The notes under the pieces were generated by a model, which saw only the letters and a list, made by a program, of their open reading frames with translations, was not told the DNA's origin and ran no database searches. 51,596 nt of DNA from Alphaproteobacteria bacterium (GTDB taxonomy: Bacteria; Pseudomonadota; Alphaproteobacteria; RF32; CAG-239): contig JAFVEP010000054.1 of assembly GCA_017475935.1 (NCBI GenBank), positions 1-51,596 on the forward strand, read 5' to 3'. Both the position numbers and the translations under genes were made by a program. How positions within the stretch are numbered: position 1 is the stretch's first letter; each line of letters opens with the position of its first letter. This document shows, piece by piece, positions 5,784 through 50,463 of this stretch.

Positions 5784-5784
5784 A

Positions 5785-7452: not shown

Positions 7453-8417
7453 TACTCATCGCCTTCCCAGCCAAAGAATCCCAAGAGAGTTGATTTTTTT
7501 TCTTCTGACGATACGTTTTTTTCTTCGACAACTGTCGTTTTTTTTGTATCATCGCCCCATTTGAAAATATTCCACCATGGTTTTTTCTCTGCTGACTGCG
7601 TATCGTCCTGCCCGCGCACGGCCTTATCTCCCTCATCTTTAACCGGCGCCGGCGCAATTTTTTTATCTGCATTCGCTTGGTTGATTTTCTGCATAATGTT
7701 TTCCGCTTTGGCTGTCCATTTTCCGTCCGGATAGTTCTGCTTAAGGATTTTATAGTAGCCGTCTGCATATTTATTCATGCCGAAAATGGCATAAATTTCA
7801 ATTTCGCGATACAATGCTTCTTCAATTTGAATTGTTGTCTGGTAATTTTCCAAAACAACATTGAAGCGATTAAGTGCCGAAAGATAGTTATGATTTTTCA
7901 AATAAAAGCGACCGATAATCATTTCCTGTCCGGCACGATAGTCTTCGGTTAAATTGATTTTCTGGCGTGCATCATCCGCATATTTGCTGTCTGGATATAA
8001 GGCAATCAACCGACGAAAAGTTTCTTCCGCTTTTTGTGTATCGCCCTGATCTTTATCCGCCGCCGAAATCTGATCATAGTAACAAATACCTTTCAAATAG
8101 TACGCATACGGCGCATCTTTATTTCCCGGATGATATTGAATAAAGCGATCTGCGGCCAAAATGGCATCATCATATTTTTCGTCTTTGTAATAAGCATAAG
8201 CCCCCATCAATTTTGCTTTAACCGCCCATTTTGAATAAGGATGATCTGTTTCCAATTTTTCGAATCCTTCGGCCGCTTTTTTGTAACGAGTTTTTTCCAA
8301 ATCTTCAAAAGCCTGATTATACAATTCTTCCGCCGACATATTGTCCATGGCTGTTTTATCCGATGCACAAGCCGGCAACAACAAAATCAAGCATAAAAGC
8401 ATATATATTTTTTTCAT
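7452..8417 (-). CDS. bamD: Outer membrane protein assembly factor BamD (ComL/YfiO family) with a C-terminal extension
   Basis: Lipoprotein signal MKKIYMLLCLILLLPAC followed by TPR-like repeats. It occupies the lpxC-bamD-recN position. Its stop overlaps the recN start (TAATG). Confidence 0.8.
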   Translation of the reverse strand: MKKIYMLLCLILLLPACASDKTAMDNMSAEELYNQAFEDLEKTRYKKAAEGFEKLETDHPYSKWAVKAKLMGAYAYYKDEKYDDAILAADRFIQYHPGNKDAPYAYYLKGICYYDQISAADKDQGDTQKAEETFRRLIALYPDSKYADDARQKINLTEDYRAGQEMIIGRFYLKNHNYLSALNRFNVVLENYQTTIQIEEALYREIEIYAIFGMNKYADGYYKILKQNYPDGKWTAKAENIMQKINQANADKKIAPAPVKDEGDKAVRGQDDTQSAEKKPWWNIFKWGDDTKKTTVVEEKNVSSEEKKSTLLGFFGWEGDE

Positions 8418-8418
8418 T

Positions 8419-9273
8419 TTATTCCTCTACCAAAGTATAATTGTCTTCGTCCGAAAACAGTTTTTTCAAAATTTCATTGTTATGAAAATGTCCGCTGTGA
8501 AAGGCATCAACGCGCGCCAGCATTCGATATCCCGATGTATACATATCGCCGATACAATCCAACATTTTATGTTTAACGCATTCATTTTCCACACGGAATC
8601 CGCCTTCATTGAGAATGGTTTCACCATCCAAAACCACGGCATTATCCAGACTACCTCCCTGAATCAAACCGACAGAGCGCAGATAATCCACCTGATATTT
8701 TTCACAGAATGTTCTGGCCGGCGCAATTTCAGAGGCAAACACATCTTCGTCAAAGCTTTTTTCAAACTCTTGATGTCCGACGATTTTCGAAGGAAAATCA
8801 ATCACCGAACGCATAACCAGCTCGTCCGCCGGAGACAAGGTAATTTCAGCACCTTTTCCATCATCAAAGCTGATTTTTTTAAGCACGCGTAAATATTTTC
8901 TTTTTGCCGGCAAATCAACCGTACCGGCTTTTTTCAGCAATTTCCAGAACTTTATCGCACTTCCGTCCATAATCGGCACTTCCGGACCATCGACCTCAAC
9001 AACGGCATTATCAATCCCGACGGCATACAGTGCAGCCATAATATGTTCGATTGTACTAACGATTTGTCCTGACGAATCTCCCAAGCAGGTACAGTTACGT
9101 GTGTCCGCAACATGATTATATAAGGCCGGAAAAAAGTTTTTCTGCGGCAAATCACTTCTGACAAAAACAATTTTATGATCTGCCGGCGCCGGTTTAACCG
9201 TTAATTTTGTTTCTTTTCCGCTATGCAAGCCTATACCATTAATCTCTGCTTCGGCGGCTAAAGTTTTTTGCAT
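8419..9273 (-). CDS. lpxC: UDP-3-O-acyl-N-acetylglucosamine deacetylase
   Basis: MQKTLAAEAEINGIGLHSG... is a typical LpxC N-terminus, and HxxDxxGD-type residues are present (KHKMLDCIGD). I prefer the ATG at 9273, preceded by GAAGGAGA SD, over the TTG at 9297 in the track. Confidence 0.93.
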   Translation of the reverse strand: MQKTLAAEAEINGIGLHSGKETKLTVKPAPADHKIVFVRSDLPQKNFFPALYNHVADTRNCTCLGDSSGQIVSTIEHIMAALYAVGIDNAVVEVDGPEVPIMDGSAIKFWKLLKKAGTVDLPAKRKYLRVLKKISFDDGKGAEITLSPADELVMRSVIDFPSKIVGHQEFEKSFDEDVFASEIAPARTFCEKYQVDYLRSVGLIQGGSLDNAVVLDGETILNEGGFRVENECVKHKMLDCIGDMYTSGYRMLARVDAFHSGHFHNNEILKKLFSDEDNYTLVEE

Positions 9274-9295
9274 ACATTTCTCCTTCAAACCAAGC

Positions 9296-9694
9296 AAGGC
9301 AGCCTGTAAGCCGAGTTTTGTACACGATTTGCTTTACCTTAAAGGGCAAAGATTTGTGCGATAGCTATTCATCTGCGCCGAATGTCGCCATCCGACTTGT
9401 GCGACCTACCTCTGGAGCGGATCGGAAACCATCCTTGCATTTAACGACTGTTAAAGCCTCCTCATTTGGTCTTACATCAGATAGGGTTTACCTTGCCACA
9501 ATCATTACTGACCGTGCGGTGAGCTCTTACCTCGCCTTTTCAACCTTACCGGAATGAATCCGGCGGTAACTTTCTGCGGCACTTTCCCTTGGATCACTCC
9601 AGCCAGACGTTATCTGGTATCTTGTTTCCGTGAAGCCCGGACTTTCCTCATCAACGGATTTTACATTCCGCGACGCAGCTATCCGGCTGCCTTG
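9296..9694 (-). ncRNA. rnpB: RNase P RNA, bacterial type A
   Basis: The minus strand carries GAGGAAAGTCCGGGCT (reverse complement of 9635-9650) and GGTAAGAGCTCACCGCACGG. The 3' element ACAAAACTCGGCTTACAGGCTGCC pairs with the 5' GGCAGCCGGATAGC as P1. Length is about 400 nt. Ends are approximate to about 5 nt. Confidence 0.9.
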
Positions 9695-22389: not shown

Positions 22390-23085
22390 ATGAGAACAAA
22401 AACAAACCAATCCGGTCGCAGTATGATTGAAATGCTCGGCGTCTTGGCTATTATCGGTGTGCTGTCAGTGGGCGGCATCGCCGGCTATTCCAAAGCCATG
22501 CAAAAATACCGCACCAACAAAACCATTGATCAAATCACCCAAATCGCCAACGGTGTCCACATGCTTTACGGAACCCGTCCCAACTACGCCGGCCTCAACA
22601 TCGGCGTCCTTGGCAAAGCCAAAATCATCCCGCAGGAGTTGATTGAAGGAGAAACAATTGAAAGTGCACAAAGAGCCTATGAAGAATTTCAGGGTGATAG
22701 ATCTTCTGGAGAAGGTGCTGCTCTTGTGGAAAGATGGATCTATCTTCAACAGCATCCTGAAGAAGCTCAGTTCACCGGCACCAACCCATTCGGCGGCAGA
22801 GTTCTCCTCTCCGTTGACGGAGATGCCAAAGCCTTCTCCATTAATTACCTCGGTCTGCCGGAAGACGCTTGCATTGACGTCCTCACTCAAGATTGGGGCG
22901 GTGCATCTGCCGGCTTAATCGCCGCCGGTGTTGACAGCACTATTTCATCAACTTACGGCTGCACCGGCGACAAAGGTTCGCATGTTTGTTCCAACCAAAT
23001 GCCGGTAACCGTCCAAAAGGCCATCGATTTGTGCGCCACCATGAATGATTCCCAAAGTAAAGGCGTCATTCTTAAATTTCGCTGA
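22390..23085 (+). CDS. Type IV pilin-like protein, paralog B
   Basis: MRTKTNQSG|RSMIEMLGVLAIIGVLSVGGIAGYSKAM: a short basic leader, Gly -1, Glu +5 and a hydrophobic helix. AAAGGAGAAG SD. C-terminal Cys pairs. Confidence 0.75.
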   Translation: MRTKTNQSGRSMIEMLGVLAIIGVLSVGGIAGYSKAMQKYRTNKTIDQITQIANGVHMLYGTRPNYAGLNIGVLGKAKIIPQELIEGETIESAQRAYEEFQGDRSSGEGAALVERWIYLQQHPEEAQFTGTNPFGGRVLLSVDGDAKAFSINYLGLPEDACIDVLTQDWGGASAGLIAAGVDSTISSTYGCTGDKGSHVCSNQMPVTVQKAIDLCATMNDSQSKGVILKFR

Positions 23086-23166: not shown

Positions 23167-25770
23167 TTAAAGTTTGAAATCAATCACACCGTCATAAGCA
23201 TAACGATACATTTGTTCAATTTCCTTAAACAGCGGATAACGTGGGTTAGCTGCCGTACATTGGTCATCGAAGGCCAATTCCGGAAGCGTTTGCATTGCTT
23301 TTTCCCACTCGTCTTCTTTGATGCCCCATTCACGAATTGAAGCCGGAATATTGAGCTTTTTCTTCATGTCTTCCAGAGCTTTGATCAAATTATCAACGGC
23401 CTCATCATCCGTTTTGCCGCTCAAGCCGATACCGCGGGCAAATGCAGCATAAGCCGCCTTGGTATTCGGAAAACGATATTGTGGGAAGGTTGCCTGTTTA
23501 GCCGGACAATCGTTCGCATTATAGCGGATAACCTGACTGATCAGCAGTGCATTAGCAAAACCGTGCGGAATATGGAAAGCCGCGCCGAGTTTGTGCGCCA
23601 TTGAGTGGCAAACACCCAAAAAGGCATTGGCAAAGGCCATACCGGCAATGGTTGCGGCATGATGGACTTTTTCACGAGCCGCAGCATCCCCTGTTTCATA
23701 CGATTTAATCAAATTTTCATAAATCAGTTTACCGGCTTCCACAGAAAGACCGCGGGTATAATCTGTAGCCATACATGAAACATATGATTCCAGAGCATGT
23801 GTCATCACATCAATACCGGAAGCGGCACACAAACCTTTCGGCATTGTCATGACCAAATCCGTATCAACAATCGCCATTGACGGCGTGAGCGTGTAATCGG
23901 CAACGGCATATTTAACGCCTGTTGAATCATCGGTAATGATGGCAAACGGCGTAACTTCCGATCCCGTACCGGACGTTGTCGGAATAGCAACCATCTGAGC
24001 TTTGACACCCATTTCCGGAAATTCGAAAATACGTTTGCGAATATCCATAAAGCGCCGCGCCAAGTCTTCAAACTTGAGTTCCGGATGCTCATACATAATC
24101 CACAAAATTTTCGTTGCATCAATCGGCGATCCGCCGCCCAAAGCGATCAAGACATCCGGCGCAAAGCTTTCAACCATATCACGAGCTTTGTTAATAGTGG
24201 TCAAATCCGGATCCGGTTTCACATCACTGAAAATTTTATACTGAATTCCCATTGGTTCAAGGATATCCGTAATTTTTTTGGTATATCCTAAGTCAAACAA
24301 AGGTTTATCCGTAACAATGAACGCTTTTTTCTTGCCTTGAAGTTCTTTTAAGGCGAAAGACAAACATCCCGGTTTGAAATAAACTTTCGGCGGAACTTTG
24401 AACCACAACATGTTTTCTTCGCGTTTTGCCACAGATTTAATATTCATCAGATGTTTTACTCCTACATTTTCACTTACCGAATTGCCACCCCAAGAACCGC
24501 AACCAAGCGTTAATGACGGTTCCAATCTAAAGTTATAAATATCACCGATTGCACCTTGTGCTGCAGGGCAATTGATCATCACACGACCGGTCGGCATAAC
24601 GTCGCCATACAATTTGATCCGTTCGTCATTGCGCGGATTCGTATAAAGAATCGATGTATGACCGGCACCGGCAAACAAGACCAATTTTTTAGCTTTTTCC
24701 ATCGCATCATCAAAGTCTTTGGCGTGATACATAGCCAAACACGGCGATAATTTTTCATAAGAGAACGGTTCTTCCGCACCGATTTTCGAAACTTCACCGA
24801 TTAATACTTTGGTATTCGGATCAACTTTAACACCTGCCATTTCGGCAATCTTAGCCGCCGGCTGTCCGACGATTCCGGCGTTCAATTTGCCGTCTTGAAT
24901 AATCGTAGCGGCAACTTTTTCACGTTCTTTTGCCGGCAAGACATAAGCGCCGCGTTTGATAAATTCGGCTTTAACCGCATCATACATGCTATCCACAACC
25001 ACAACCGATTGTTCTGATGCGCAAATCATGCCGTTATCAAAAGTTTTGGACATCAAAATTGAGCTGACCGCCATTTCAATATCTGCCGTTTCGTCAATCA
25101 CAGCCGGTGTATTACCCGGACCAACACCCAAAGCCGGCGTACCTGATGAATAAGCAGATTTAACCATGCCCGGACCGCCGGTAGCCAAAATCAGGTCCGA
25201 CTGTTGCATCAAAAATTGTGTTTTGTTCAATGTCGGTTCATCAATCCATGCAATAATACCTTCCGGAGCACCGGCTTTAACCGCTTCTTCCAAAATAATG
25301 CGAGCGGTTTCAATGGTGCACTTTTTGGCGCGAGGATGCGGTGAAAAAATGATACCGTTACGCGTTTTAAGTGCGATCAACGACTTAAATATAACCGTCG
25401 AAGTCGGATTCGTCGTCGGAATAACGCCGGAAATCACCCCGACCGGTTCGGCAAATTTAATCATGCCATTGGCTTTATCATCTTCGATAATGCCGCAAGT
25501 TTTGGTATTTTTGAACTTATTATAAATATATTCCGAAGCGAAGTGATTTTTGATCACCTTATCTTCGGCCACACCCATTCCGGTTTCTTCGACAGCCATT
25601 TTAGCCAACGGAATACGCATCGATGACGCTTTTAAGGCCACCCGACGAAATATTTCATCAACCTGTTCTTGCGTATATGTTGCGAACTTTTTCTGTGCCT
25701 CACTGACTTTTTTGATCAATTCAGCAACATATTCCTTTTCTTGTTTTTCATCAATTTGATTATTATCCAT
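23167..25770 (-). CDS. adhE: Bifunctional acetaldehyde-CoA / alcohol dehydrogenase
   Basis: 867 aa. The N-terminal aldehyde dehydrogenase half includes the catalytic-Cys region NGMICASEQS. The C-terminal half is an iron-type ADH (GGGSPIDATK, histidine cluster HSMAHKLG). Confidence 0.95.
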   Translation of the reverse strand: MDNNQIDEKQEKEYVAELIKKVSEAQKKFATYTQEQVDEIFRRVALKASSMRIPLAKMAVEETGMGVAEDKVIKNHFASEYIYNKFKNTKTCGIIEDDKANGMIKFAEPVGVISGVIPTTNPTSTVIFKSLIALKTRNGIIFSPHPRAKKCTIETARIILEEAVKAGAPEGIIAWIDEPTLNKTQFLMQQSDLILATGGPGMVKSAYSSGTPALGVGPGNTPAVIDETADIEMAVSSILMSKTFDNGMICASEQSVVVVDSMYDAVKAEFIKRGAYVLPAKEREKVAATIIQDGKLNAGIVGQPAAKIAEMAGVKVDPNTKVLIGEVSKIGAEEPFSYEKLSPCLAMYHAKDFDDAMEKAKKLVLFAGAGHTSILYTNPRNDERIKLYGDVMPTGRVMINCPAAQGAIGDIYNFRLEPSLTLGCGSWGGNSVSENVGVKHLMNIKSVAKREENMLWFKVPPKVYFKPGCLSFALKELQGKKKAFIVTDKPLFDLGYTKKITDILEPMGIQYKIFSDVKPDPDLTTINKARDMVESFAPDVLIALGGGSPIDATKILWIMYEHPELKFEDLARRFMDIRKRIFEFPEMGVKAQMVAIPTTSGTGSEVTPFAIITDDSTGVKYAVADYTLTPSMAIVDTDLVMTMPKGLCAASGIDVMTHALESYVSCMATDYTRGLSVEAGKLIYENLIKSYETGDAAAREKVHHAATIAGMAFANAFLGVCHSMAHKLGAAFHIPHGFANALLISQVIRYNANDCPAKQATFPQYRFPNTKAAYAAFARGIGLSGKTDDEAVDNLIKALEDMKKKLNIPASIREWGIKEDEWEKAMQTLPELAFDDQCTAANPRYPLFKEIEQMYRYAYDGVIDFKL

Positions 25771-26600: not shown

Positions 26601-27053
26601 TTATACCACCTTATTTTTTATTTTTGCGGCTTCCGCGCGGGCCAACGCATCACACCTTTCATTTTCCGGATGTCCGTTATGCCCTCTCACCCAAATCCAA
26701 CGGATTTCGTGTTTTTGTTGCAATTCATCCAATTTTTGCCAAAGATCAATATTTTTAACGCCCTTATTCTTATGGGCCGTCCGCCACCCTTTTTTCTTCC
26801 AATTATCCATCCACTCGGTCACACCGTTCATCACGTATTGGCTATCCGTGTACAGTGAAATATTGCAACTTTTCTTTAGTGCGCTCAAGGCTTCAATAAC
26901 AGCCGTCAGTTCCATCCGATTATTGGTGGTATTCTCTTCCCCGCCGCTTAATTCCTTTTCAACCTCTTTATATATTAAGATAGCACCCCAGCCGCCAGCT
27001 CCTGGGTTACCCGGACAAGCGCCGTCCGTAAATATTTCCACTCTGTCTGTCAT
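26601..27053 (-). CDS. rnhA: Ribonuclease HI
   Basis: 150 aa. [32 protein letters not shown] and [17 protein letters not shown] carry the DEDD catalytic residues. Confidence 0.95.
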
Positions 27054-28120
27054 TCCGTTATTTCCATAAAGTCATTAAAAAATTCATTCAGCAGAAGTTC
27101 TCTCTGCTCTTCCGAAGAGCGAAACACTTTTGCCACGAATGAACGCAGATTATTCCGCAAGCACTCGATCCGGAAAGATTTAGGCAATGCGCTGTCCGCA
27201 CCGACGACTCCGTTAATCAGCAAATCGCTGTCCGTCATTTCGGATAAAATCATCTCAATTTGTGCAAATTTAATAATTCCGCGCGGCGGTAGACGCTGTT
27301 CGGCTTTGGTCATTAAATTGAGCTGACCTTCTATACCTTTAAAGTTAATCATCTGCCCATAATCTAAAAAGCGCACGCGGTTATATTCACTGCCGCTGCT
27401 TTCCGTCATGCATGTCATATAAAGCTCACGCGCAATCACATTGCTGTCATTTTCGCACATCACATCAAAAGAAACTTTGACATATTTTTGCGGCGGCGTA
27501 TCAATCGTTTTCGGATACAAAATATCTTGATCTCCGTACTCCACAATTTCAAGCTGACGGTTTTCAATACGAATATCAACATCCGGCTGCGGCCGACGTC
27601 CGAACATGCCGGCAATAACCGAGTATGGCGCCGGCACATTATTAGAACCCGAACGAATATAAATACGTCCGCCGAGAGTTGTCATTAACGGTGCGACATT
27701 TGATTTCGGAATATAGGTTGCCAGATAACCGTCACCGTTTTCGTCACAACTGATAATATGATTACGCACCCGATTGTGGCTCGGAATCGTGCATCCGGAG
27801 ATTGCATTTTCCACCCAGCTCATAAAGCGATGAACATTTTGCACTTTAACTTTGGCCTGTGCAACGTCGCCGATATCCATATCGCGCGCGCACTCAACGC
27901 CCCATATCACGATTCCGCCCTCTGAATTACCGAATCCGGAAATACATTTTGCCAGATTGCGGCGATCATCATTGCTCAAAGACCAACCGTGTTTTCCTGT
28001 CGATGTTGCTTGCTTAAAGTCCAAAAAAAGCTCTTCAGTCTGACGCTGAACAATAAATTCATCCAGCGCATCTTCGCCGAAATAAATCAATTTTTCAAAA
28101 ATATCTTCCGCTCTGGACAT
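27050..28120 (-). CDS. AlbA_2 (Schlafen-like) domain protein with an uncharacterised C-terminal half
   Basis: [26 protein letters not shown] and [13 protein letters not shown] match my recollection of the AlbA_2 / divergent-AAA consensus. The ATG at 28120 has a GGAGGA SD. The stop overlaps the rnhA start as ATGA. Confidence 0.65.
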
Positions 28121-28154
28121 CGCTCCTCCATACACTGTTTATAGCATAGAGAGA

Positions 28155-41347: not shown

Positions 41348-41423
41348 TGGTGAGCTCGGTGGGATTCGAACCCGCGACCCTTTGATTAAAAGTCAAATGC
41401 TCTACCGACTGAGCTACGAACTC
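41348..41423 (-). tRNA. tRNA-Lys (anticodon UUU), CCA encoded
   Basis: The reverse complement GAGTTCGTAGCTCAGTCGGTAGAGCATTTGACTTTTAATCAAAGGGTCGCGGGTTCGAATCCCACCGAGCTCACCA folds as a cloverleaf. The anticodon loop is CTTTTAA and there is one C-A mismatch in the T stem. Confidence 0.9.
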
Positions 41424-41438
41424 GCTTAACAGGTTATG

Positions 41439-41467
41439 CTTATAAAAGATAAAATCCTTTAAGTCAA
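41439..41467 (-). promoter_or_regulatory. Candidate sigma70 promoter of tRNA-Lys
   Basis: The minus strand reads TTGACT, 17 nt, TATAAG, ending 15 nt upstream of the mature tRNA 5' end. Confidence 0.45.
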
Positions 41468-41571: not shown

Positions 41572-41892
41572 ATGACTATAAGTAATGAAATAGGGCAAAA
41601 AGGCCACTACAGCATTTTGCAAAATGCTCAAGGGGAAATCATGATCTTGATCGAAAGTCGCACCGGTGGTCCGGAAGAGCCGCGTTTTTTCTATGACGGC
41701 GGTGATTTGGCTCTGCTTTATCGCTCAAAAGAAAATTCGATTGCTTTCAGAAATATAGAATCCGGCGCTCGCATTCCGCTCAAGTCCGTTTCTGAAGTTC
41801 TGGTTGTTGAAATTGAAGACGATGACGTTGAAAGAGAATATATTGTTCCGGTGCGCATTGTTAAAAATGTGAACAATTTTATTATTTCATAA
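41572..41892 (+). CDS. Uncharacterised small soluble protein, paralog 1
   Basis: 106 aa with GAGG SD 6 nt before the ATG. No TM or signal peptide. About half its residues are identical to the next ORF. Confidence 0.6.
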   Translation: MTISNEIGQKGHYSILQNAQGEIMILIESRTGGPEEPRFFYDGGDLALLYRSKENSIAFRNIESGARIPLKSVSEVLVVEIEDDDVEREYIVPVRIVKNVNNFIIS

Positions 41893-41917
41893 AAGCAAAA
41901 AGGCAAAGAGGTGCTTC

Positions 41918-42226
41918 ATGAGTGAGATTTTTTGCAAAATTTATCAAAATGCCAAGGGTGAAATTATGATGATGGTCGATTCTTCTGACGGTGGACCGGA
42001 GAATCCGCGTTTTGTGTATGATGGCGGCTCCAGAGCTTTATTTTATCGCACCCAGAAAAAACCTTTTATACTGCGCAACATTGAAGAGCCGGCTCGCGTT
42101 CCGCTGAAATCCGTCAAGGAAATTCTAATTGTTGAAATCGACGGACAAGAAGTTGCCCGTGAATATATGATTCCGGTACGCATTGTGGAAGATTTAAACA
42201 AACTCAAATTTTCTGAAGTTCGGTGA
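41918..42226 (+). CDS. Uncharacterised small soluble protein, paralog 2
   Basis: 102 aa with AAGAGG SD. It shares the motifs GEIM, GGPExPRFxYDGG, ARxPLKSVxExLxVEI and REYxxPVRIV with ORF 41572..41892. Confidence 0.6.
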   Translation: MSEIFCKIYQNAKGEIMMMVDSSDGGPENPRFVYDGGSRALFYRTQKKPFILRNIEEPARVPLKSVKEILIVEIDGQEVAREYMIPVRIVEDLNKLKFSEVR

Positions 42227-42232
42227 CCTTAG

Positions 42233-43900
42233 ATGATTGCATACACAACGTTGCTCCTTTTTTTCATCGGCACGATTGGTTATGCTAAAGTCAGCACAAA
42301 ATACGATAAAATTTTATCTTTTGTGATGTTGGCATCGCTTTGTGCTGTTTTTGCGCATTTTTATGAAGATATGGTTACCGGCATTAATCATACTTTTTCT
42401 TTTGTGTGGAACAGCTCCCCCGGCGGTGATATTAAAATTGACATCATTTCGAATCTTCACAATTATGAATTAATTTTTCCTTTTTTCGTCATGACGCTGT
42501 CGGCCGTATTTTTCAATCAACTCTTTAAGTACGAAGAACGGCGCAGTCAATATAACTCCGTGCTATGTTTTAACTTGGCGGCGCTTATTGTTATGATCAC
42601 CAGCAATAACTTCGTACAGTTGCTTTCCGCCGTCTTTATTATTGACATACTTGCGCTTTTTCTCATCCGCAATTGGAGTGCGTATCGGCGATTCGCTTTA
42701 ATGAATTTTGCCGCCGACATGATGCTTTTCACGATTTTGGCCATGATCAACTGTAAAGTCGATTCTCTGGATTTGCGGCAAATTTTAATGTACAAAAAAA
42801 CAGGATTTCATATCAATGAAATTGCCTTGCTCGGCCTGACCTGCGTTTTTATCAAAACGGGATTCTTTTTATTCCACCTATCTTTGGCTGATCTAAAAAA
42901 TGTACGCATGCACCGCCTGCAATGCATATTATTTTTATCAGCCCCGATCAGCGCTTTGATTTTACTCTTAAAATTCCATCTTCTGTGGCAAGCTTCACCC
43001 TACTTTATTCCGTTTTTAAAATTTGAGTGTGTGACCACGATTGCCTTTGGGTTTTGGAACTTTTGCCGTCTTGATAACATCAAAAGCAAACTCATCGGCC
43101 TGCAAACAGCCTTCTGGGCACTATTGATTCTTTTGCTCAGTTTCAATGGTTTTATATGGGATAAGCGGATCAACTTTTTACTGTTGCAAAATTTTGTTGT
43201 TTTCGGGTGTTTTTACCTTATTTATTTCCATATGAATCGCCCTAACCTTCTGTCCTCACTGAGCGAAAAAAAAATCGGCAACAAAAGCTCTGTTATCGCA
43301 GCCGTCTGCATTCTGACCGCATCCGTTGCGGCCATGGCCGGAACATTAACGGCTATATATAATAACAGCAACCGTTATTATATATGGGGATTCGGTCCGA
43401 TTTTTGTGATTCTGTCGGCGTTGTTCTGCCGGCGCATCTTATGGACTTTGCAGCAAAAAACATTTTCCGCCCGGCAATCCGGTAAATTCTTGCCATCGCT
43501 GTTCCTTACATCACTAGCAGTGGTTCTGAGTAAAGATCTGATGACAACCGATCTTATAGCATGGATATTTCCTCTGGTCTTTTTATTGATATGCATTATT
43601 CCCGTCAAACATCCGTTAAAATTTTCCGTTCAAGACAATCAAACCGATGCGGTCAGTGCATTATATAAATACATACTGATTAGGCCGATTAAACTGTGCG
43701 GAAGATTGTTATGGTTATGGGTAGATCGCATGTTGGTAGAAAAATTGATCCTCGGTTTAATTATTACTTTTGCACGAAGTTGTTTGAGGTTATTCCGCAG
43801 AGCGCACAGCAACGGTCTTATCGGCGCTCTGATTGTGATCATTTTTACTTGTTTGCTGTTGTGGAGCTCTTTCTTAAACGGGGAGATCGGCAATGTATAG
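42233..43900 (+). CDS. Divergent NuoL/MrpA-like proton-conducting membrane transporter subunit
   Basis: 555 aa and polytopic. FIKTGFFLFHLSLAD occupies the place of the GKSAQ..H.WL.DA helix. The NuoL-type C-terminal segment is LYKYILIRP...WVDRMLVEKLI...RRAHSNGLIGALIVI. Several canonical charged positions look substituted. Confidence 0.7.
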   Translation: MIAYTTLLLFFIGTIGYAKVSTKYDKILSFVMLASLCAVFAHFYEDMVTGINHTFSFVWNSSPGGDIKIDIISNLHNYELIFPFFVMTLSAVFFNQLFKYEERRSQYNSVLCFNLAALIVMITSNNFVQLLSAVFIIDILALFLIRNWSAYRRFALMNFAADMMLFTILAMINCKVDSLDLRQILMYKKTGFHINEIALLGLTCVFIKTGFFLFHLSLADLKNVRMHRLQCILFLSAPISALILLLKFHLLWQASPYFIPFLKFECVTTIAFGFWNFCRLDNIKSKLIGLQTAFWALLILLLSFNGFIWDKRINFLLLQNFVVFGCFYLIYFHMNRPNLLSSLSEKKIGNKSSVIAAVCILTASVAAMAGTLTAIYNNSNRYYIWGFGPIFVILSALFCRRILWTLQQKTFSARQSGKFLPSLFLTSLAVVLSKDLMTTDLIAWIFPLVFLLICIIPVKHPLKFSVQDNQTDAVSALYKYILIRPIKLCGRLLWLWVDRMLVEKLILGLIITFARSCLRLFRRAHSNGLIGALIVIIFTCLLLWSSFLNGEIGNV

Positions 43901-45317
43901 TATGTTGTTTATCCTTGTACTTCTGCCTCTCTTTGGCAATATATTTGCGCTAACCTCACGACAAAATGAAAGCAACGCCTACAATGTTACTCTTTTGACG
44001 ATGGGAACCGGTATTTTAATCATCCTAAAGTTATTTGCCGCCATCGACATATCATCCGGAGCGGTTCAATTTGTGCATCAGGTTCCGTGGCTTGAAACGA
44101 TGAACATCACTCTGTCTTTCGGTATTGATCCGTTTGCTCTTCTCTTATTATTCGGCATCTATCTTTCACTTTTAATCGGTTTAATCGGCTTACCGGCCCA
44201 CGAACGTAAAAACCGCTCACTTTTTGTCCTATTCCTTTATTTTTTGTGGACAATCACCGGTTTTTTAACGGCTGATGACATGATTTCTTTTTACGTTTTT
44301 TTCGCTGCCATGCTCATTCCGCTGTTCATGTTGATCGGATCTTACGGACGTTACCGAAAATCATTGTCTTTATATCTGTTTTTCCTGATTAACATGGCCG
44401 GTATTCTGTTTTTGCTTATATCTATGCTGATTACGTACAAATTCTATCATGGCAACATTCAGCTTCATGAAATTGCTTTTGTTAAAATGCCTAAGCACGT
44501 CGGTTTATTGGTTTGGGGCTTTGTCTGCTTAGCTTTTGCTTCACGCATACCGGTATGGCCGTTTCACTCATGGATTTGCGCTATCAGCGCCGGAATCCGC
44601 AATCCTTTGGTTTATATTATGGCCAATCTCATTCCGTTGACCGGATTATACGGGTTCGCACGATTTTGGCAGGTTGCCGTTGCCGACAGCATGTTGGCTT
44701 ATATTCCGATTGTCACGGTTTTTTGCTTGATAACGATGTTTTTTATTGTTTAAATCGGCGTAGTCCATAAAGACTTTTTATATAAGCTGTTTTCTTACAT
44801 GACGGTTTATTATCTCCTGTTTTTGTTGACGGTTATTCTTCTTTCCTCCATTTTGCTTGGTGAAACGCTGAAAATGAACATGGCTTATTCGCTGTTTATT
44901 TTCTTGATTGTCAACGCTTCTCTGGTTGTTTTGGATTTCAAATTGGAAAATGAATGTGAAAACAAAAAATGTGAATATAAAGGAATTCTGGCATATATGC
45001 CGCGGCTGTCCAAAATATTTTCATTTTTTGTACTGGTCGCGATCGGATTACCTGTTTCCTCAATGTTTTGGAATAATTTTATCATTATTTCATCTTTATT
45101 CAACTTAAGCTCCGTTGTCGGTCTGACGGTCATGGCTGTCATTACGGTTATCAGCCTTTCGCTGCTCTACGAGCTTTATTTTATGCGCGATTTACAAAAA
45201 CATATTCAATTTTCCGAGAACATCTCTGATCTTACACAAAGAGAATTTCTCTTTTTCTTGGGCATTATTGTTATTCTGTTCTTATCATTTTTCGACCCGA
45301 TGTGGTTTGTTATATAG
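43893..45317 (+). pseudogene. Divergent NuoM/MrpD-like subunit interrupted by a single in-frame TAA (44751-44753)
   Basis: ORFs 43893..44753 and 44799..45317 are in the same frame. Family similarity runs through the stop (IV*IGVVHKDFLYKLFSYMTVYY corresponds to the ..Q.D.K.L.AYSS..H region). PVWPFHSWICAIS and MPRLSKIFSFFVLVAIGLPVSSMF are NuoM-like. Confidence 0.65.
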
Positions 45318-45326
45318 GAAATTGAC

Positions 45327-46745
45327 ATGATCGAAAGTTTTATATATTTATCTCCTTTATTGGTTCTTCTGGTCGGTTTAATGTTATTTTCGGCCACCGA
45401 ATTTGAAAATGACGAGCAAATGCGGTGCTTTAAAATATGCCGCAATATTTTAAGTCTCAGTTTGTTTTTAGCTGTCATTTTCTACAACCGTCCGATGATC
45501 ACCGGTTTAACTTCAGCCAACAAATTCACCTTAGTTTTTCAAATCATAACTTATACCAGCGCACTGGCTGTTTTATATTTATCCCGCAAGTGGTTTTCCA
45601 ACATGAAAATCTCCGGACATAAATACTGCTATTGCTTAATAACTTCGGTTTTAGCCGCTGATCTGCTGATTATTTCCCACAATATTCTGCTCACACTCGG
45701 ATCATCGTTGCTCCTTCTCTTCAGCAATTTTTTGATGATGAAAAATGCGGAAAACAAAAAAGACCTGTCTATCAATGTCCGCGTTTATCTTATATCATCA
45801 ATATGCTTTGTGACTTTAATGTGTATTGCCGCCTTTTTACTTTATTATTTGAGTAATTCATTTGATTATACCGCTATTTTGGCTTACCTGGATACACAAC
45901 AGCAAGACGCCATCACATTTACAGCTTCGGCGATGTTTATCCTCGGTTTTATCTTCATGATCGGTTTAGCCCCGATGCATTTTTGCTTAACGGAAACACT
46001 CGGAAAAGTTATGCTTCCGGTTTTTGCCTATTTTATGCTGGTTCCGACAGCTGCATACTGGGCTGGTTTCATTCGTTTAAACATGAAAATGCTATCCCCT
46101 TTGATCAATGAATTTCATCTTTTTTACATTACAATCGCGCTACTTTCTGTTGCTGTCGGCGCCATCGGAACATGCAGCGGGCAAAATATCCGCAAAATCA
46201 TGGCATACAGCGCGGTATACCAATGGGGAATCATATTTTTAATGTTGCAGTATTTTACACCGGATTCCGCCGATGCTGCCTTTGTCTGTTTAATTTTATA
46301 TCTTCTGGCAATGTATGGCATATGCGTCTGCCTTTTCAGTTTAAAAATAAAAGGAGAATATCTTTTCATGCTCAACGAATTTTCCGGCGCATCAACAAAG
46401 CGACCATATGTCTCGGCTTTATTTACCGTATTTTTATTTTCTCTTTTGGGATTTCCCCCTCTTCCCGGATTTTTAAGCATTTTTTCCGTACTCAACAATC
46501 TTTCCATGCACGGACACTATTATCAAATCGTTTATCTTTTAACGATGATGTTTTTCATCGCCTACGCCTATCTGCAGATCGTTAAGACCTTTTATTTTGA
46601 AACAAAACAGAGTGCCTTTGACAGAGCCGATTGGGGGATCTATGCCTTGCTGTGTATTCAGGTTGTTTTCATGTTTCTGATCGTGTTAAAGCCGCACTAT
46701 CTTTTGGAAAATTTAAATTTTATGATGGAGGCAGCCCTTGGATAA
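45327..46745 (+). CDS. Divergent NuoN-like subunit
   Basis: 472 aa and polytopic. GLAPMHFCLTETLGKVMLPVFAYF, KIMAYSAVYQWG and LLGFPPLPGFLSIF are NuoN/ND2-like. The end overlaps birA by 8 nt. Confidence 0.7.
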   Translation: MIESFIYLSPLLVLLVGLMLFSATEFENDEQMRCFKICRNILSLSLFLAVIFYNRPMITGLTSANKFTLVFQIITYTSALAVLYLSRKWFSNMKISGHKYCYCLITSVLAADLLIISHNILLTLGSSLLLLFSNFLMMKNAENKKDLSINVRVYLISSICFVTLMCIAAFLLYYLSNSFDYTAILAYLDTQQQDAITFTASAMFILGFIFMIGLAPMHFCLTETLGKVMLPVFAYFMLVPTAAYWAGFIRLNMKMLSPLINEFHLFYITIALLSVAVGAIGTCSGQNIRKIMAYSAVYQWGIIFLMLQYFTPDSADAAFVCLILYLLAMYGICVCLFSLKIKGEYLFMLNEFSGASTKRPYVSALFTVFLFSLLGFPPLPGFLSIFSVLNNLSMHGHYYQIVYLLTMMFFIAYAYLQIVKTFYFETKQSAFDRADWGIYALLCIQVVFMFLIVLKPHYLLENLNFMMEAALG

Positions 46746-47457
46746 AATACAGCCATGGGAACTTTTTTGTTTTGACGAGGTTACAAGCACCAATGACAAA
46801 GCCAAAGAGCTTTGCCGTGAAGGCGGTCATTTTTACGTTGTTTCCGCCCGAAAACAGACCAAAGGACGCGGGCGGCGCGGCCATCACTGGATCAGTCAGG
46901 AAGGAAATTTATTTTGTTCTCTGGCTTTTGAATTTTCGCTTCAAGACTTGGGAGCCATTGTTTTACTGACCTCACTAAGTCTTTTGCAAACAATAACATC
47001 TTACGATCAAAATGCCGAAGTTACTTTAAAATGGCCGAATGATGTTCTCTTGAATAAAGCCAAAATCAGCGGTATATTAATTGAAAAGGCTGAGCAAGAT
47101 TATTGGATTATCGGAATCGGTGTGAATATCAAACAAGCTCCGGAGTTGACTGATTGCACCTATAAAGCAACCTCATTGATGGACCACGAAATTGATACTT
47201 CGGCCCCGATATTTTTGCAAAAATTTTTGCATACTTTTACAAAAAATATAGATATGTGGCATACCGCCGGTTTTGCAAGTGTAAAAAATTCATGGTTGAG
47301 TCACGCCCCCGATCTCGGCCGAACAATCAAGGTCAGACTTGAAAACCAAAATGTAGAGGGAGTTTTTACGGATATTGACAATAACGGTTTTTTATTGTTA
47401 AAAACAAATACAGGTGTAATCACGATCACAGCAGGTGAAATTTTTACGGATAGGTAA
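46738..47457 (+). CDS. birA: Biotin--[acetyl-CoA-carboxylase] ligase (class I, no HTH)
   Basis: QTKGRGRRGHHW, KWPNDVL and KISGILIE. TTG start. Confidence 0.9.
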   Translation: MDKIQPWELFCFDEVTSTNDKAKELCREGGHFYVVSARKQTKGRGRRGHHWISQEGNLFCSLAFEFSLQDLGAIVLLTSLSLLQTITSYDQNAEVTLKWPNDVLLNKAKISGILIEKAEQDYWIIGIGVNIKQAPELTDCTYKATSLMDHEIDTSAPIFLQKFLHTFTKNIDMWHTAGFASVKNSWLSHAPDLGRTIKVRLENQNVEGVFTDIDNNGFLLLKTNTGVITITAGEIFTDR

Positions 47458-47459
47458 AC

Positions 47460-49130
47460 ATGGCAGATTTAACAAAGGAAGGTATTTACTTTTTGCCGCT
47501 GGGCGGCGCTGATGATATTGGCATGAATATGTATGTTTATGCCGTCAACGGAAAAATGATTGTCGTTGATGTCGGCTACGGCTTTTTACTGGATTACCCG
47601 GGAATGGAGATGGCTTACGCCTCACCGGATTTTTTTGATGAACATCAAGAAGATATTTTAGGCCTATTCATTACGCATGCACATGAAGACCATTTGGGGG
47701 CTATCGCACAGATATGGCCGCATCTGAAATGTCCGGTTTATGCTATGGACTTCACAATCGGTTTAATCAAAGAACGCTTAAATGAATTCAAAATGGCCGA
47801 TCAAGTTCCGCTGATTTCGGTGAATCAAAGCCGAAATGTTATTTTACCGAACTTCAACGTTGAATTTATCCCTGTGGCTCATTCCGTACCGCAGACTTGT
47901 GCATTGGCTATTCGTACCCGATACGGCAACGTTTTACACGCCACCGATTGGCGTTTCGATGACGAGGCTTTGTCTATGCTTCCGACTGATTATGCGGCCC
48001 TGCAGAAATTCGCCGATGAAGGGGTTTCATTGTTTGTATGCGATTCGACGAATGTTATGTTAGATCAAAAAACGCCAACGGAAGCAGATGTGCGCAAAAA
48101 CTTAATCCGGCTTATTCCAACCATTGAAGGGGGCATTATCGTGACTTGTTTTGCATCCAATATGATGCGCCTCGAAAGTTTAATGCTAGCCGCAGAAGCC
48201 GCGGGACGAACGCCGGTTTTACTGGGACGCTCTCTAGCCACATGCGTCAAAATCGCCAAAGAATGCGGTTATTTAAACACCGGCGCACAGGCCTGCACCA
48301 TTGAAGCCGGAAAAGATATTCCAGCAGATAAAGCCTTATATATCTGCACGGGCTCACAAGCTAACTATCGCAGTGCCATGAGCCTGATTGCCAACGGCGA
48401 GAGCAAATACGTCAAACTCGATAAGTCCGATACGGTTATTTTTTCTTCCAAACTCATCCCCGGCAATGAAGAAAAAGTTGAACGCATGCAGGAAAAAATG
48501 CATGATTTGGGCGCGACAATCATTACCAATGAAACAGATTTAGTCCATGCCACCGGACATGCTTGCAAAGAAGACCTTAAGAAGATGTATGATCTGATAA
48601 AACCGGCCATTGTGCTTCCGGTTCACGGCGATAAAAGGTTCATCCGCGAACACAAGCGTTTTGCGTCGGCATGCGGAATCAAAGAGGTTTTTTCGGCACG
48701 CAACGGCGATGTCTGCCTGCTTCAGAATAACCACATCCATCTTGAAGACACTGTGATCACCGATGTTCTCGGATGGGATCGGTCGCACGCCGTTTCCCTG
48801 TCCTCACAAGTGATCAAAAACCGTCGACGAATTGCTTTTAACTGCTCCATGTACATCAGTGCGGTCATCAAAGACAAACAGCTTCTCGACATCAACGTCA
48901 CATCAATCGATATTCTCAACGAAGAAGATTGGATGAATTTAATTGATGAAATATTGCAAAAGGTACGTCCGCTCATCAGTGAAAAGCTTCTGGTCACAGA
49001 AAACAGAGCACAAATTGAAGATTTTATTCGCGGACAAATCAGACGGCGAGTCTTTTCTGCCACTGATATTAAACCGGTCACTATGCTCCACATCTATTAC
49101 CTTGACGATTGCACATCCGATGAAAAATAA
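47460..49130 (+). CDS. rnj: Ribonuclease J (MBL/beta-CASP)
   Basis: 556 aa. HAHEDHLGA, beta-CASP motifs and the position after birA. Confidence 0.9.
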   Translation: MADLTKEGIYFLPLGGADDIGMNMYVYAVNGKMIVVDVGYGFLLDYPGMEMAYASPDFFDEHQEDILGLFITHAHEDHLGAIAQIWPHLKCPVYAMDFTIGLIKERLNEFKMADQVPLISVNQSRNVILPNFNVEFIPVAHSVPQTCALAIRTRYGNVLHATDWRFDDEALSMLPTDYAALQKFADEGVSLFVCDSTNVMLDQKTPTEADVRKNLIRLIPTIEGGIIVTCFASNMMRLESLMLAAEAAGRTPVLLGRSLATCVKIAKECGYLNTGAQACTIEAGKDIPADKALYICTGSQANYRSAMSLIANGESKYVKLDKSDTVIFSSKLIPGNEEKVERMQEKMHDLGATIITNETDLVHATGHACKEDLKKMYDLIKPAIVLPVHGDKRFIREHKRFASACGIKEVFSARNGDVCLLQNNHIHLEDTVITDVLGWDRSHAVSLSSQVIKNRRRIAFNCSMYISAVIKDKQLLDINVTSIDILNEEDWMNLIDEILQKVRPLISEKLLVTENRAQIEDFIRGQIRRRVFSATDIKPVTMLHIYYLDDCTSDEK

Positions 49131-49133
49131 ATC

Positions 49134-49162
49134 TTGAATTTTGTTTATTTCTTTGCTATAAT
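49134..49162 (+). promoter_or_regulatory. Near-consensus sigma70 promoter
   Basis: TTGAAT (49134-39), exactly 17 nt, TATAAT (49157-62), immediately upstream of the 49183 CDS. Confidence 0.5.
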
Positions 49163-49182
49163 TGGACAAAATGGAGCGAGTA

Positions 49183-50463
49183 ATGCCTAATCTTTTAGAT
49201 GTAAATAGACCTTTAGCCCAAGGTATTGTGGGAGAAACAGAGGATAAAAGAAATGAAAAATTGCTTCGTATTGCGCATTTAAAAGAGCGCAACACGCTTC
49301 TGTTTACCCAAAATGCTGATGAAAAAAAGCCTTCAGATGCTCAGGCCTATCAAGAAATCACCGAAGCATGTTTTGATTTTTTAAGAACAAGAAGTCAAGA
49401 AGACGAAGATGCGCTGGCTCAAGTTTTGGAAAAAAACAATCTTGAATTGCATTGCTATAAAGCAAGCCCTGTATCTAGAGATAAAAAGTTAGTTGCCCGC
49501 ATGGCTTTTAATGGTTATGTTGACAGACCGAATGAATATGAACTTTCACCTTTATTTCGCAATATGAAAAATAATCCGCTACAACGTCAGCCATACAAAA
49601 GTGAAGACTATGATCTCTCTTACTCTACGGCATGGAATGTTTTTAAACAAGTTCCCGAATTTGCCGAAATTGAAGATGCCGTCAAGAAAGGATTGGCAAC
49701 GTATGGCATTCCGCCGGAAAAATTAAGCGAGATAGGAGCTAAAGATTTGTGTTTTATCATCAATGAACAATTCCGTGGCCGAGGTCGTGACAGTGCAAAA
49801 GTTTTTTCGGAAAGTTATAAAGCACGGCACACCAAGCGTTTTATCAATGAAAATGAAAAAGAATTTCGGCACAGCCTCCTCTCGTGCGGGGGGGTACGCC
49901 GAGACTACGTGGATGCTTTAGTTGCTGCCATGAAGCGAGGATTGACAGATTTAACCAAAATTCGCGATGAACAAGGAAATCCTATATGGAAAGAAGAATG
50001 GAAAGATCAACCGGTTGTTGATGTTCACCATATTGTTAACATTAAAGATTGCTCTGCTTTGGAAGAAGACGGCTCAAAAAGTTTTATGAATGTCAACAAC
50101 TATGAAAATATGTGCTTTATTGTGCGCCATCCTCAACACGATGCCATGCATGCGCTGGAACATGACCTTGTTGAAGACAGACCGCGCAATGATATTTTCT
50201 ACAATCGCGAGCTGGATGAAAAATATATCTATCGCATCCAACCGCCGGAAGGTGTAAAATGTATGGTTGGTTTTCATAATTTTATTTATGATAAAGAATA
50301 TTTACAAAAGCATTCTCAAGAAGCAACTAAACATGCTAAAGCACAAAGTTACTACAAAAACCAACAGCAAAACAGAAACAACGATCGCTTCAATAATAAA
50401 GGTCTGAAATTTAAAGGCGGACGCCTGTCACAGAAACATAAAGGAAATAATTATGGATACTAA
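49183..50463 (+). CDS. Uncharacterised protein with a C-terminal HNH/AHH-like (beta-beta-alpha-Me) nuclease motif; candidate toxin
   Basis: VVDVHHIVNIKD...NVNNYENMCFIVRHPQHDAMHALEH at nt ~50015-50165, followed by a basic Asn/Gln/Lys-rich tail. No signal peptide. The ATG at 49183 lies 6 nt after GGAG. The track's TTG at 49162 sits inside the -10 box. Confidence 0.5.
   Translation: MPNLLDVNRPLAQGIVGETEDKRNEKLLRIAHLKERNTLLFTQNADEKKPSDAQAYQEITEACFDFLRTRSQEDEDALAQVLEKNNLELHCYKASPVSRDKKLVARMAFNGYVDRPNEYELSPLFRNMKNNPLQRQPYKSEDYDLSYSTAWNVFKQVPEFAEIEDAVKKGLATYGIPPEKLSEIGAKDLCFIINEQFRGRGRDSAKVFSESYKARHTKRFINENEKEFRHSLLSCGGVRRDYVDALVAAMKRGLTDLTKIRDEQGNPIWKEEWKDQPVVDVHHIVNIKDCSALEEDGSKSFMNVNNYENMCFIVRHPQHDAMHALEHDLVEDRPRNDIFYNRELDEKYIYRIQPPEGVKCMVGFHNFIYDKEYLQKHSQEATKHAKAQSYYKNQQQNRNNDRFNNKGLKFKGGRLSQKHKGNNYGY

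Follow-up and report, generated by a model that had tools for sequence, protein, structure and literature searches.

A nuoLMN-like gene module in an alphaproteobacterial contig

We analyzed a stretch of 51,596 nucleotides from an Alphaproteobacteria bacterium (contig JAFVEP010000054.1 of assembly GCA_017475935.1; hereafter the window), which carries three large genes resembling nuoL, nuoM and nuoN of respiratory complex I, standing apart from the other genes of that complex. All genes of the module lie on the plus strand. Two small open reading frames (ORFs), S-A (41572..41892, 106 amino acids, predicted soluble) and S-B (41918..42226, 102 amino acids, 25 nucleotides (nt) 3' of S-A), are followed after 6 nt by an L-like gene (42233..43900, 555 amino acids), which, as argued below, is NuoL-derived. 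The M-like gene, likewise NuoM-derived (43893..45317, 474 codons), overlaps the L-like gene by 8 nt and is split by an in-frame TAA at 44751..44753 into ORFs of 286 and 172 amino acids. The N-like, NuoN-derived gene (45327..46745, 472 amino acids) starts 9 nt 3' of it and overlaps by 8 nt the biotin-protein ligase gene birA (46738..47457; TIGR00121, 164.5 bits), behind which lies the RNase J gene rnj (47460..49130; RNase J beta-CASP domain, TIGR00649, 353 bits). The original prediction, an earlier reading of this DNA by eye, had described these ORFs and spacings correctly, and all the peptide motifs it quoted were found in the translations. For brevity the three large proteins are called L, M and N, and the small ones S.

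Identity and descent of the three large proteins

Both M and N match PF00361 above its gathering cut-off of 21.5 bits (51.8 and 22.6 bits for the two halves of M, and 77.5 bits for N). The best NCBIfam family is NuoM for M (TIGR01972, 127.7 and 36.7 bits, below the cut-off of 263.8) and NuoN for N (TIGR01770, 130.4 bits, below the cut-off of 332.6). Because these scores lie far under the cut-offs of the NuoM and NuoN families, M and N are genuine but highly divergent. L as a single sequence has no Pfam or NCBIfam match at E <= 1. The by-eye call of three proteins of this superfamily (PF00361; NuoL/M/N, MrpA/D) was thus confirmed by the family libraries for M and N but not for L, and L is placed there by its sequence profile and its predicted structure.

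A profile of six L-like sequences searched against PDB matched Paracoccus denitrificans NuoL (8qby_L, E = 1e-11) over two stretches, in the core and in the C-terminal region, with residues 469-547 aligned to residues 616-696 of Paracoccus NuoL. The family profile of M found Paracoccus NuoM (2e-50), and that of N found E. coli NuoN (9e-45) and Paracoccus NuoN (4e-44), both at ~155 bits. M scored 175 bits with Paracoccus NuoM, 150 with plant ND4, 122 with the E. coli protein and 82 with MrpD, and the matches of M and N to NuoM and NuoN are in general far above those to MrpD, hydrogenase subunits and DabB.

In a reciprocal BLASTP comparison with Sinorhizobium meliloti, L, M and N each have their own subunit as the top match. 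Moreover, the annotated order in S. meliloti CP090106.1 is nuoI-J-K-L-M-N, then a biotin ligase gene overlapping nuoN, then an RNase J gene, and the window shows the same order L-M-N-birA-rnj with the same type of overlap. (This 3.7-Mb record is labelled 'plasmid pSymB' but has the chromosomal nuo-birA-rnj genes, and is apparently a mislabelled chromosome.) Three ordinary NuoN matches (P0088, P0094 and P0087) belong to non-alphaproteobacterial operons without birA-rnj and are uninformative for synteny. By the own-subunit best matches, the shared gene order and the birA-rnj pair downstream as in S. meliloti, L, M and N are the positional descendants of alphaproteobacterial nuoL, nuoM and nuoN, as the original prediction had proposed.

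The identity between the window and S. meliloti is 22% for L, 26% for M and 21% for N, and 34% and 33% for birA and rnj, respectively. The corresponding values for NuoL, NuoM and NuoN are 40%, 38% and 35% when S. meliloti is compared with a member of another class, E. coli. The L, M and N genes of the window have thus diverged much faster than functional complex I genes.

The module stands without the remaining complex I genes

We searched the window and ~70 loci carrying the module in other genomes (1.2 Mb in total) for further complex I subunits by tblastn. The E. coli queries NuoA, B, CD, E, F, G, H, J and K had no match; NuoI gave weak ferredoxin-like matches in two loci only, and none in the window. 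The same search detected a canonical nuo operon that served as a control. Pfam and NCBIfam scans of the window ORFs of 150 amino acids or more (38/46) gave housekeeping genes, with no nuo or mrp gene beyond the module. No mrpB/C/E/F/G was seen among the called genes of the operons and no NuoK/MrpC-like protein among the tblastn matches, with no dedicated Mrp small-subunit profiles run. The genes upstream of the module vary from locus to locus and are unrelated to nuo. Taken together with the family profiles and structure matches, these nuo-free flanks agree with the original prediction of an orphan, highly divergent NuoL/M/N set, and with its observation that nuoA-K and mrp genes are missing from the window.

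For Azospirillum sp. CAG:239, a strict anaerobe and a probable relative, the complex I entries in a published table are only NuoE-like, NuoF-like and NuoN-like, and nothing is listed for oxidases, bc1, succinate dehydrogenase or quinone synthesis (Degli Esposti et al. 2019, PMC6431628 Table S2). From this table we infer that the rest of complex I has been lost genome-wide in the clade. Gut bacteria of the clade possess pyruvate:ferredoxin oxidoreductase as well as [FeFe]-hydrogenases partnered by NuoE/F-like proteins, and the NuoE/F-like genes cluster with a soluble HymABC-type hydrogenase (PMC4967309). An anaerobic, fermentative lineage had been predicted from adhE in the window (23167-25770, minus strand, 1370 bits), and this gene and the two publications bear it out.

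The module is kept under purifying selection

N-like homologs fall into ~85 clusters, with full-length ones of 461-478 amino acids, and L-like homologs into 114 clusters, with full-length ones of ~543-570 amino acids. All of them come from uncultured Alphaproteobacteria, and they are mostly unnamed or 'hypothetical', a few being called NuoN or proton-conducting transporter subunit. When a single genome of each species was scanned, 62 species proved to have the L-like gene, and their genomes are all gut, rumen or faecal metagenome-assembled genomes (MAGs). The hosts include Candidatus Scatocola, which NCBI taxonomy places within Rhodospirillales, and several 'uncultured Azospirillum sp.'. The remotest L-like homolog found is from a bioreactor metagenome and lies in the same module.

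In a survey of the loci with hidden Markov models (HMMs), the order L-M-N-birA-rnj is kept wherever the length of the locus suffices. L, M and N are single full-length frames in all loci but the window (where M is split) and L050, and M is intact in relatives at 467-478 amino acids. In the MAG of L050, the N-like gene (5499-6889) and rnj (7670-9320) are each split into two frames. Since rnj is broken too, this suggests frameshift errors of assembly rather than gene loss.

The ratio of nonsynonymous to synonymous substitution rates (dN/dS) was estimated by the Nei-Gojobori method for 15 genome pairs. L has values of 0.07-0.17, M of 0.02-0.10 and N of 0.05-0.24, and the neighbors birA and rnj have 0.06-0.24 and 0.01-0.15, respectively. 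M is thus the most constrained of L, M and N. Because dN/dS is low and the frames are full-length across the clade, the three genes are under strong purifying selection and not decaying. The original prediction that the module was retained rather than decaying therefore holds in the relatives, where dN/dS is far from 1 and no recurrent frameshifts are seen.

The stop codon in M has to be viewed against this background. A contig from another sample (L071), which shares 98.97% identity with the window along 9.5 kb, has an intact M of 474 amino acids. The base-by-base comparison of the two leaves a sole relevant difference, at position 44752, which is A in the window (TAA) and T in L071 (TTA, Leu). 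M is intact also in a second relative, whose N is 76% identical. The TAA is an error of assembly or else a nonsense mutation of very recent origin, in which case it would be a fresh knockout of the most conserved subunit. It had been taken earlier to support gradual pseudogenization, which a single-base difference from a contig with intact M, in the most constrained gene, does not bear out.

The canonical proton relay is largely dismantled

To examine the residues on which proton conduction in complex I depends, we aligned 59-61 family members with E. coli NuoL, NuoM and NuoN, with the E. coli numbering checked. In L, Glu144 in transmembrane helix 5 (TM5) is kept in 1/61 sequences. An Asp is found one turn later in 38/61, and as a general rescue of the lost Glu it was rejected on that count. 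Asp178 (TM6) is kept in 59/61 and Lys229 (TM7) in 61/61. His254 (TM8) and His334, His338 and Lys342 (TM11) have uncharged replacements in nearly all 61 sequences, and Lys399-Asp400 (TM12) have no counterpart in a region that is not alignable.

The changes in M are more uniform. Lys234 (TM7) is Arg, Lys265 (TM8) is Leu and Glu407 (TM12) is Asn in 61/61, His322 is Tyr in 60/61, and His348 is Phe or Tyr in 60/61. Glu144 (TM5) is kept in 44/61 and lost in 17/61, including the window, which has Ala. Conservation in M is concentrated on TM4-5, TM7-8, TM9-10 and TM12. In N, Glu133 (TM5) is kept in 6/59, Lys217 (TM7) in 2/59, being mostly replaced by Met, Leu or Phe, and Lys247 (TM8) in 0/59, where the residue is hydrophobic. 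Lys395 (TM12) is kept in 36/59 and lost in 23/59, with Ile in the window. HMM alignments to PDB chains gave the same residue assignments.

These results show that the canonical Lys/Glu/His relay has been largely dismantled across the family, in all three subunits. It is also evident that the canonical residues still remaining are undergoing independent loss in sub-lineages. The replacement of many canonical positions had been noticed by eye in the window, and the explicit alignment extends it to the whole family. The alternative offered at that time, a repurposed ion-translocating system, finds no positive support here, given the family-wide replacement of the charged relay.

The predicted structure of L retains the elements linking L, M and N

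An AlphaFold2 model of L, built with 54 homologs, has a mean predicted local distance difference test score (pLDDT) of 86.6 and a predicted template modelling score of 0.83. It has 16 TM helices, of which TM7 is broken, a beta-hairpin at residues 53-73, and at the C-terminus a 53-residue lateral helix (473-525) followed by an anchor TM helix (528-550); TM12 is modelled unbroken and uncharged. A Foldseek search of PDB with this model returned NuoL, ND5 or NdhF chains as all of the top 49 matches, with probability 1.0, and the model aligns with NuoL over its full length. The best-conserved stretch of L in the family is at window residues 485-508, the start of the lateral helix. The NuoL-type lateral helix and anchor proposed in the original prediction are thus reproduced by the model and by the C-terminal stretch of the profile match.

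In the model, therefore, L retains the parts that tie L, M and N together in complex I, namely the beta-hairpin, the lateral helix and the C-terminal anchor. Because the fold and these linking elements are kept, and conservation in L peaks where the lateral helix begins, it is most likely that L, M and N still assemble as an L-M-N membrane complex.

The small upstream proteins belong to a widespread domain family

S-A is the ortholog of the single small gene found upstream of L in most relatives, to which it is 68-86% identical where N is only 41-51% identical, and dN/dS for S is 0.00-0.06. S-B is a tandem paralog of S-A, 55% identical to it and without the N-terminal tail. This duplication occurs only in the sub-lineage of the window, including L071 (179-833) and L072 (179-823), and elsewhere there is one copy. 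The AlphaFold2 model of S is mostly beta (pLDDT 86.8). Searches of S against Pfam, NCBIfam, PADLOC, PHROGs, PDB by sequence profile, and PDB and BFVD by Foldseek gave nothing significant. We rejected the idea that S derives from NuoK or NuoJ by divergence, since the protein is soluble and BLASTP shows no similarity.

Among 1.84 billion representative proteins, a search with a profile gave 575 relatives of S at E <= 1e-3. Many are stand-alone proteins of ~100 amino acids, and in many others the domain is C-terminal in a larger protein. Among 62 multidomain relatives, 32 carry a TIR domain at the N-terminus; Sel1, TPR or STAND modules are present in others, and such pairings are typical of conflict or signalling systems. 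Among 69 loci, S lies directly upstream of L in 49, kilobases off on the opposite strand in 6, and is absent from the available flank in 11. S is thus a member of a widespread uncharacterized domain family and a frequent, not obligatory, neighbor of the module. The earlier suggestion that the small proteins are partners of L, M and N finds support in the 49 loci with S adjoining L, but not in the loci where S is distant or absent, nor in the occurrence of its domain in unrelated proteins.

Other features of the window

A tRNA-Lys(UUU) gene lies upstream of S-A on the minus strand (41348-41423). The original prediction had counted it as part of the arrangement that replaced the rest of the operon; it is not conserved, as the upstream genes differ among loci. 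In the 148-nt gap between this tRNA and S-A, a promoter-like site (41426..41455, plus strand; TTAACA, 18 nt, TAAAAT; 10/12 consensus matches) is a weak candidate for the promoter of the operon, from a consensus scan only. Scans for terminators and promoters gave weak consensus matches only, and an Rfam scan of the module gave nothing beyond the tRNA.

Directly 3' of rnj lies an ORF of 433 amino acids (49162-50463) without Pfam or NCBIfam match, whose sequence has His-rich motifs (DVHHIV..., HPQHDAMH). A gene of 426 amino acids occupies the same position after rnj in L071 (7790-9070) and L072 (7796-9076), the nearest relatives of the window, followed there by a gene of ~140 amino acids. The window also contains a PilS/bundlin-like type IV pilin gene and a Schlafen AlbA_2-domain gene (22390-23085 and 27050-28135, respectively), and a pilin-like gene lies just upstream of the module in L001 (4754-5374).

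GC skew over the window (1-51596) is negative up to ~46 kb and slightly positive beyond, and at ~40.3 kb the genes, most of which lie on the minus strand before that point, turn to the plus strand. T is in strong excess in the LMN region, where the AT skew is -0.16 to -0.25. The skew pattern is compatible with a replication landmark and with a plain coding-strand effect.

Discussion

The results could be explained as follows. L, M and N descend from nuoL, nuoM and nuoN in an alphaproteobacterial operon for complex I, and would have stayed in place when the remaining complex I was lost in a clade of Alphaproteobacteria that live as strict anaerobes by fermentation in guts, rumen and digesters. 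The three genes have been kept intact under strong purifying selection upstream of birA and rnj, and the retained antiporter-like fold and linking elements of L would allow an L-M-N membrane complex. With the Glu/Lys/His relay largely swapped for uncharged residues, this complex would not be a conventional redox- or gradient-driven proton pump; it may instead be kept for another membrane role that uses the fold and the few surviving or new polar residues, among which L Asp162-Lys208 and M Arg218, His225, Asn394 and Asn395 are candidates. We consider this, a nuoLMN relic retained for a non-pump membrane role, the best explanation as a whole, at a probability of about 0.6. A conventional proton pump seems unlikely because the relay is largely dismantled. 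As for the role itself, a structural or scaffolding function in the membrane is a tentative choice, short of an even chance; a residual or altered cation-binding or cation-conducting function is possible but doubtful; and something else than a structural or cation role would account for the remainder. It is also conceivable, with similar doubt, that L-M-N is an autonomous membrane machine, possibly together with S, and has a novel activity that does not depend on redox chemistry, for example the binding, conduction or sensing of cations.

Several points weigh against the relic explanation. The structural basis of the L-M-N assembly is a model of a single chain, L. A purely structural role would be an unusual reason for keeping 4.5 kb in a small genome. 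The genome-wide absence of nuoA-K, mrpB-G and hydrogenase partners comes from one table on one probable relative, CAG:239, whose membership in the family is inferred from MAG naming only. Furthermore, the residues were assigned in alignments at 20-25% identity, with TM11-12 of L poorly alignable, and relay residues may have shifted rather than disappeared, as the Asp following the TM5 Glu of L could indicate.

The alternative that survives best, which we nevertheless regard as rather unlikely, is that the module is still an ion transporter, that is, a stand-alone cation or proton conductor or antiporter of the Mrp or DabB type, with rewired polar residues and possibly regulated or completed by S. 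The strong purifying selection would suit it, as would the concentration of conserved residues on channel-lining helices (TM4-5, TM7-8, TM9-10 and TM12 of M, and TM12 of N). The TM7 Lys and TM6 Asp of L are kept in 61/61 and 59/61 sequences, and M has invariant Arg and His in TM7. At the former relay sites of M or close to them there are also Asn, Thr, Tyr and Ser residues that vary little or not at all and could ligate a cation. The antiporter-like fold, moreover, operates outside complex I in Mrp and DabB. However, no subunit has a continuous series of titratable residues across the membrane, and N has been stripped of nearly all of them yet is equally conserved. The TM5 Glu of M, the TM12 Lys of N and the TM5 acid of L have been lost independently in several lineages, which would not be expected of ion carriers, and no MrpB/C/E/F/G-like or DabA-like partner was seen adjoining the module.

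It is improbable that L, M and N still belong to a complete but highly diverged complex I, or to a related membrane-bound hydrogenase, with the genes for the other subunits in distant parts of the genome. The regions searched reach only ~10-50 kb around the module, and the clade does have NuoE/F-like proteins and [FeFe]-hydrogenases (PMC4967309), so other genes could sit outside these regions. Against this, the table for CAG:239 has only NuoE-, NuoF- and NuoN-like entries and no quinone biosynthesis (PMC6431628), and the NuoE/F-like genes are clustered with the soluble HymABC-type hydrogenase (PMC4967309). Functional L, M and N subunits are also far more conserved (35-40% between S. meliloti and E. 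coli, versus 21-26% between the window and S. meliloti), and the relay residues essential for coupling are gone. Slowly decaying pseudogenes, with frames open by chance or for read-through transcription into birA and rnj, might account for the in-frame TAA and the lost functional residues, but are hardly credible with frames intact in essentially all 62 species down to 21-26% identity, dN/dS of 0.02-0.17 equal to that of essential neighbors, many invariant residues, and a TAA one base away from the intact gene of a conspecific contig.

The relic explanation is best judged against known systems. With NuoL/M/N of complex I (Nqo12-14, ND5/ND4/ND2; Paracoccus 8qby) the relic shares one-to-one orthology, gene order, the birA-rnj pair and the fold, including the beta-hairpin, broken TM7, lateral helix and C-terminal anchor of NuoL. 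Unlike complex I, it has no nuoA-K or nuoH adjoining in any locus examined, its relay (TM5 Glu, TM7 Lys, TM8 Lys/His, TM11 His/Lys, TM12 Lys/Glu) is largely replaced, its lateral helix has only ~53 residues, and TM12 of L is unbroken and uncharged. The relay is preserved in the stand-alone users of the fold, namely Mrp, DabB and the CupA-bearing NDH-1, whose partners also differ. The Mrp antiporter (MrpA/MrpD with B, C, E, F and G) resembles the relic in having the antiporter-like fold without a redox module, and is a precedent outside complex I; however, the relic is closer to NuoM and NuoN than to MrpD (175 versus 82 bits for M, and 155 versus ~68-78 for N), and the charged relay is kept in Mrp but not in the relic. 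DabB-DabA and NDH-1MS (NdhD3/F3 with CupA/CupS) are similar in that a PF00361-type membrane protein stands beside a soluble protein without redox cofactor motif. They differ in that DabB matches the N of the relic weakly (9rd0_B, 1.5e-9, versus 9e-45 for NuoN), that no DabA- or CupA-like protein adjoins the relic, whose conserved neighbor has ~105 amino acids, that S has no detectable relation to solved structures, and that three subunits are kept instead of one.

To our knowledge, complex I is normally either lost or kept whole, and the fragment that survives in anaerobes is the soluble NADH module (NuoE/F). The hydrogenosomal NuoE/NuoF of reduced mitochondria are such a complex I fragment outliving respiration and reused (PMC4967309); there the soluble NADH module is kept and the pump lost, whereas the relic lineage keeps the outermost pump subunits as well. 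The sole trace of an earlier description that we found in the literature is the 'NuoN-like' entry in Table S2 of PMC6431628, in a check that was incomplete, so that a prior description is possible. If L-M-N is indeed an autonomous machine as considered above, it would be the first example of a distal pump module that has outlived the rest of complex I and functions by itself.

In these bacteria it is the opposite end of complex I that survives, as three antiporter-like subunits long kept under selection as strong as that on essential neighbors, with replacement of the very residues regarded as essential to the one activity known for them. The family may thus serve as a natural experiment that separates the roles of the NuoL/M/N fold and its lateral-helix clamp from proton pumping, and the residues needed for folding and assembly from those needed for transport. 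It also bears on how a respiratory chain is dismantled under anoxia in the class ancestral to mitochondria, and it draws attention to ~4.5 kb of genes that are annotated wrongly or as 'hypothetical' in bacteria common in gut and rumen.

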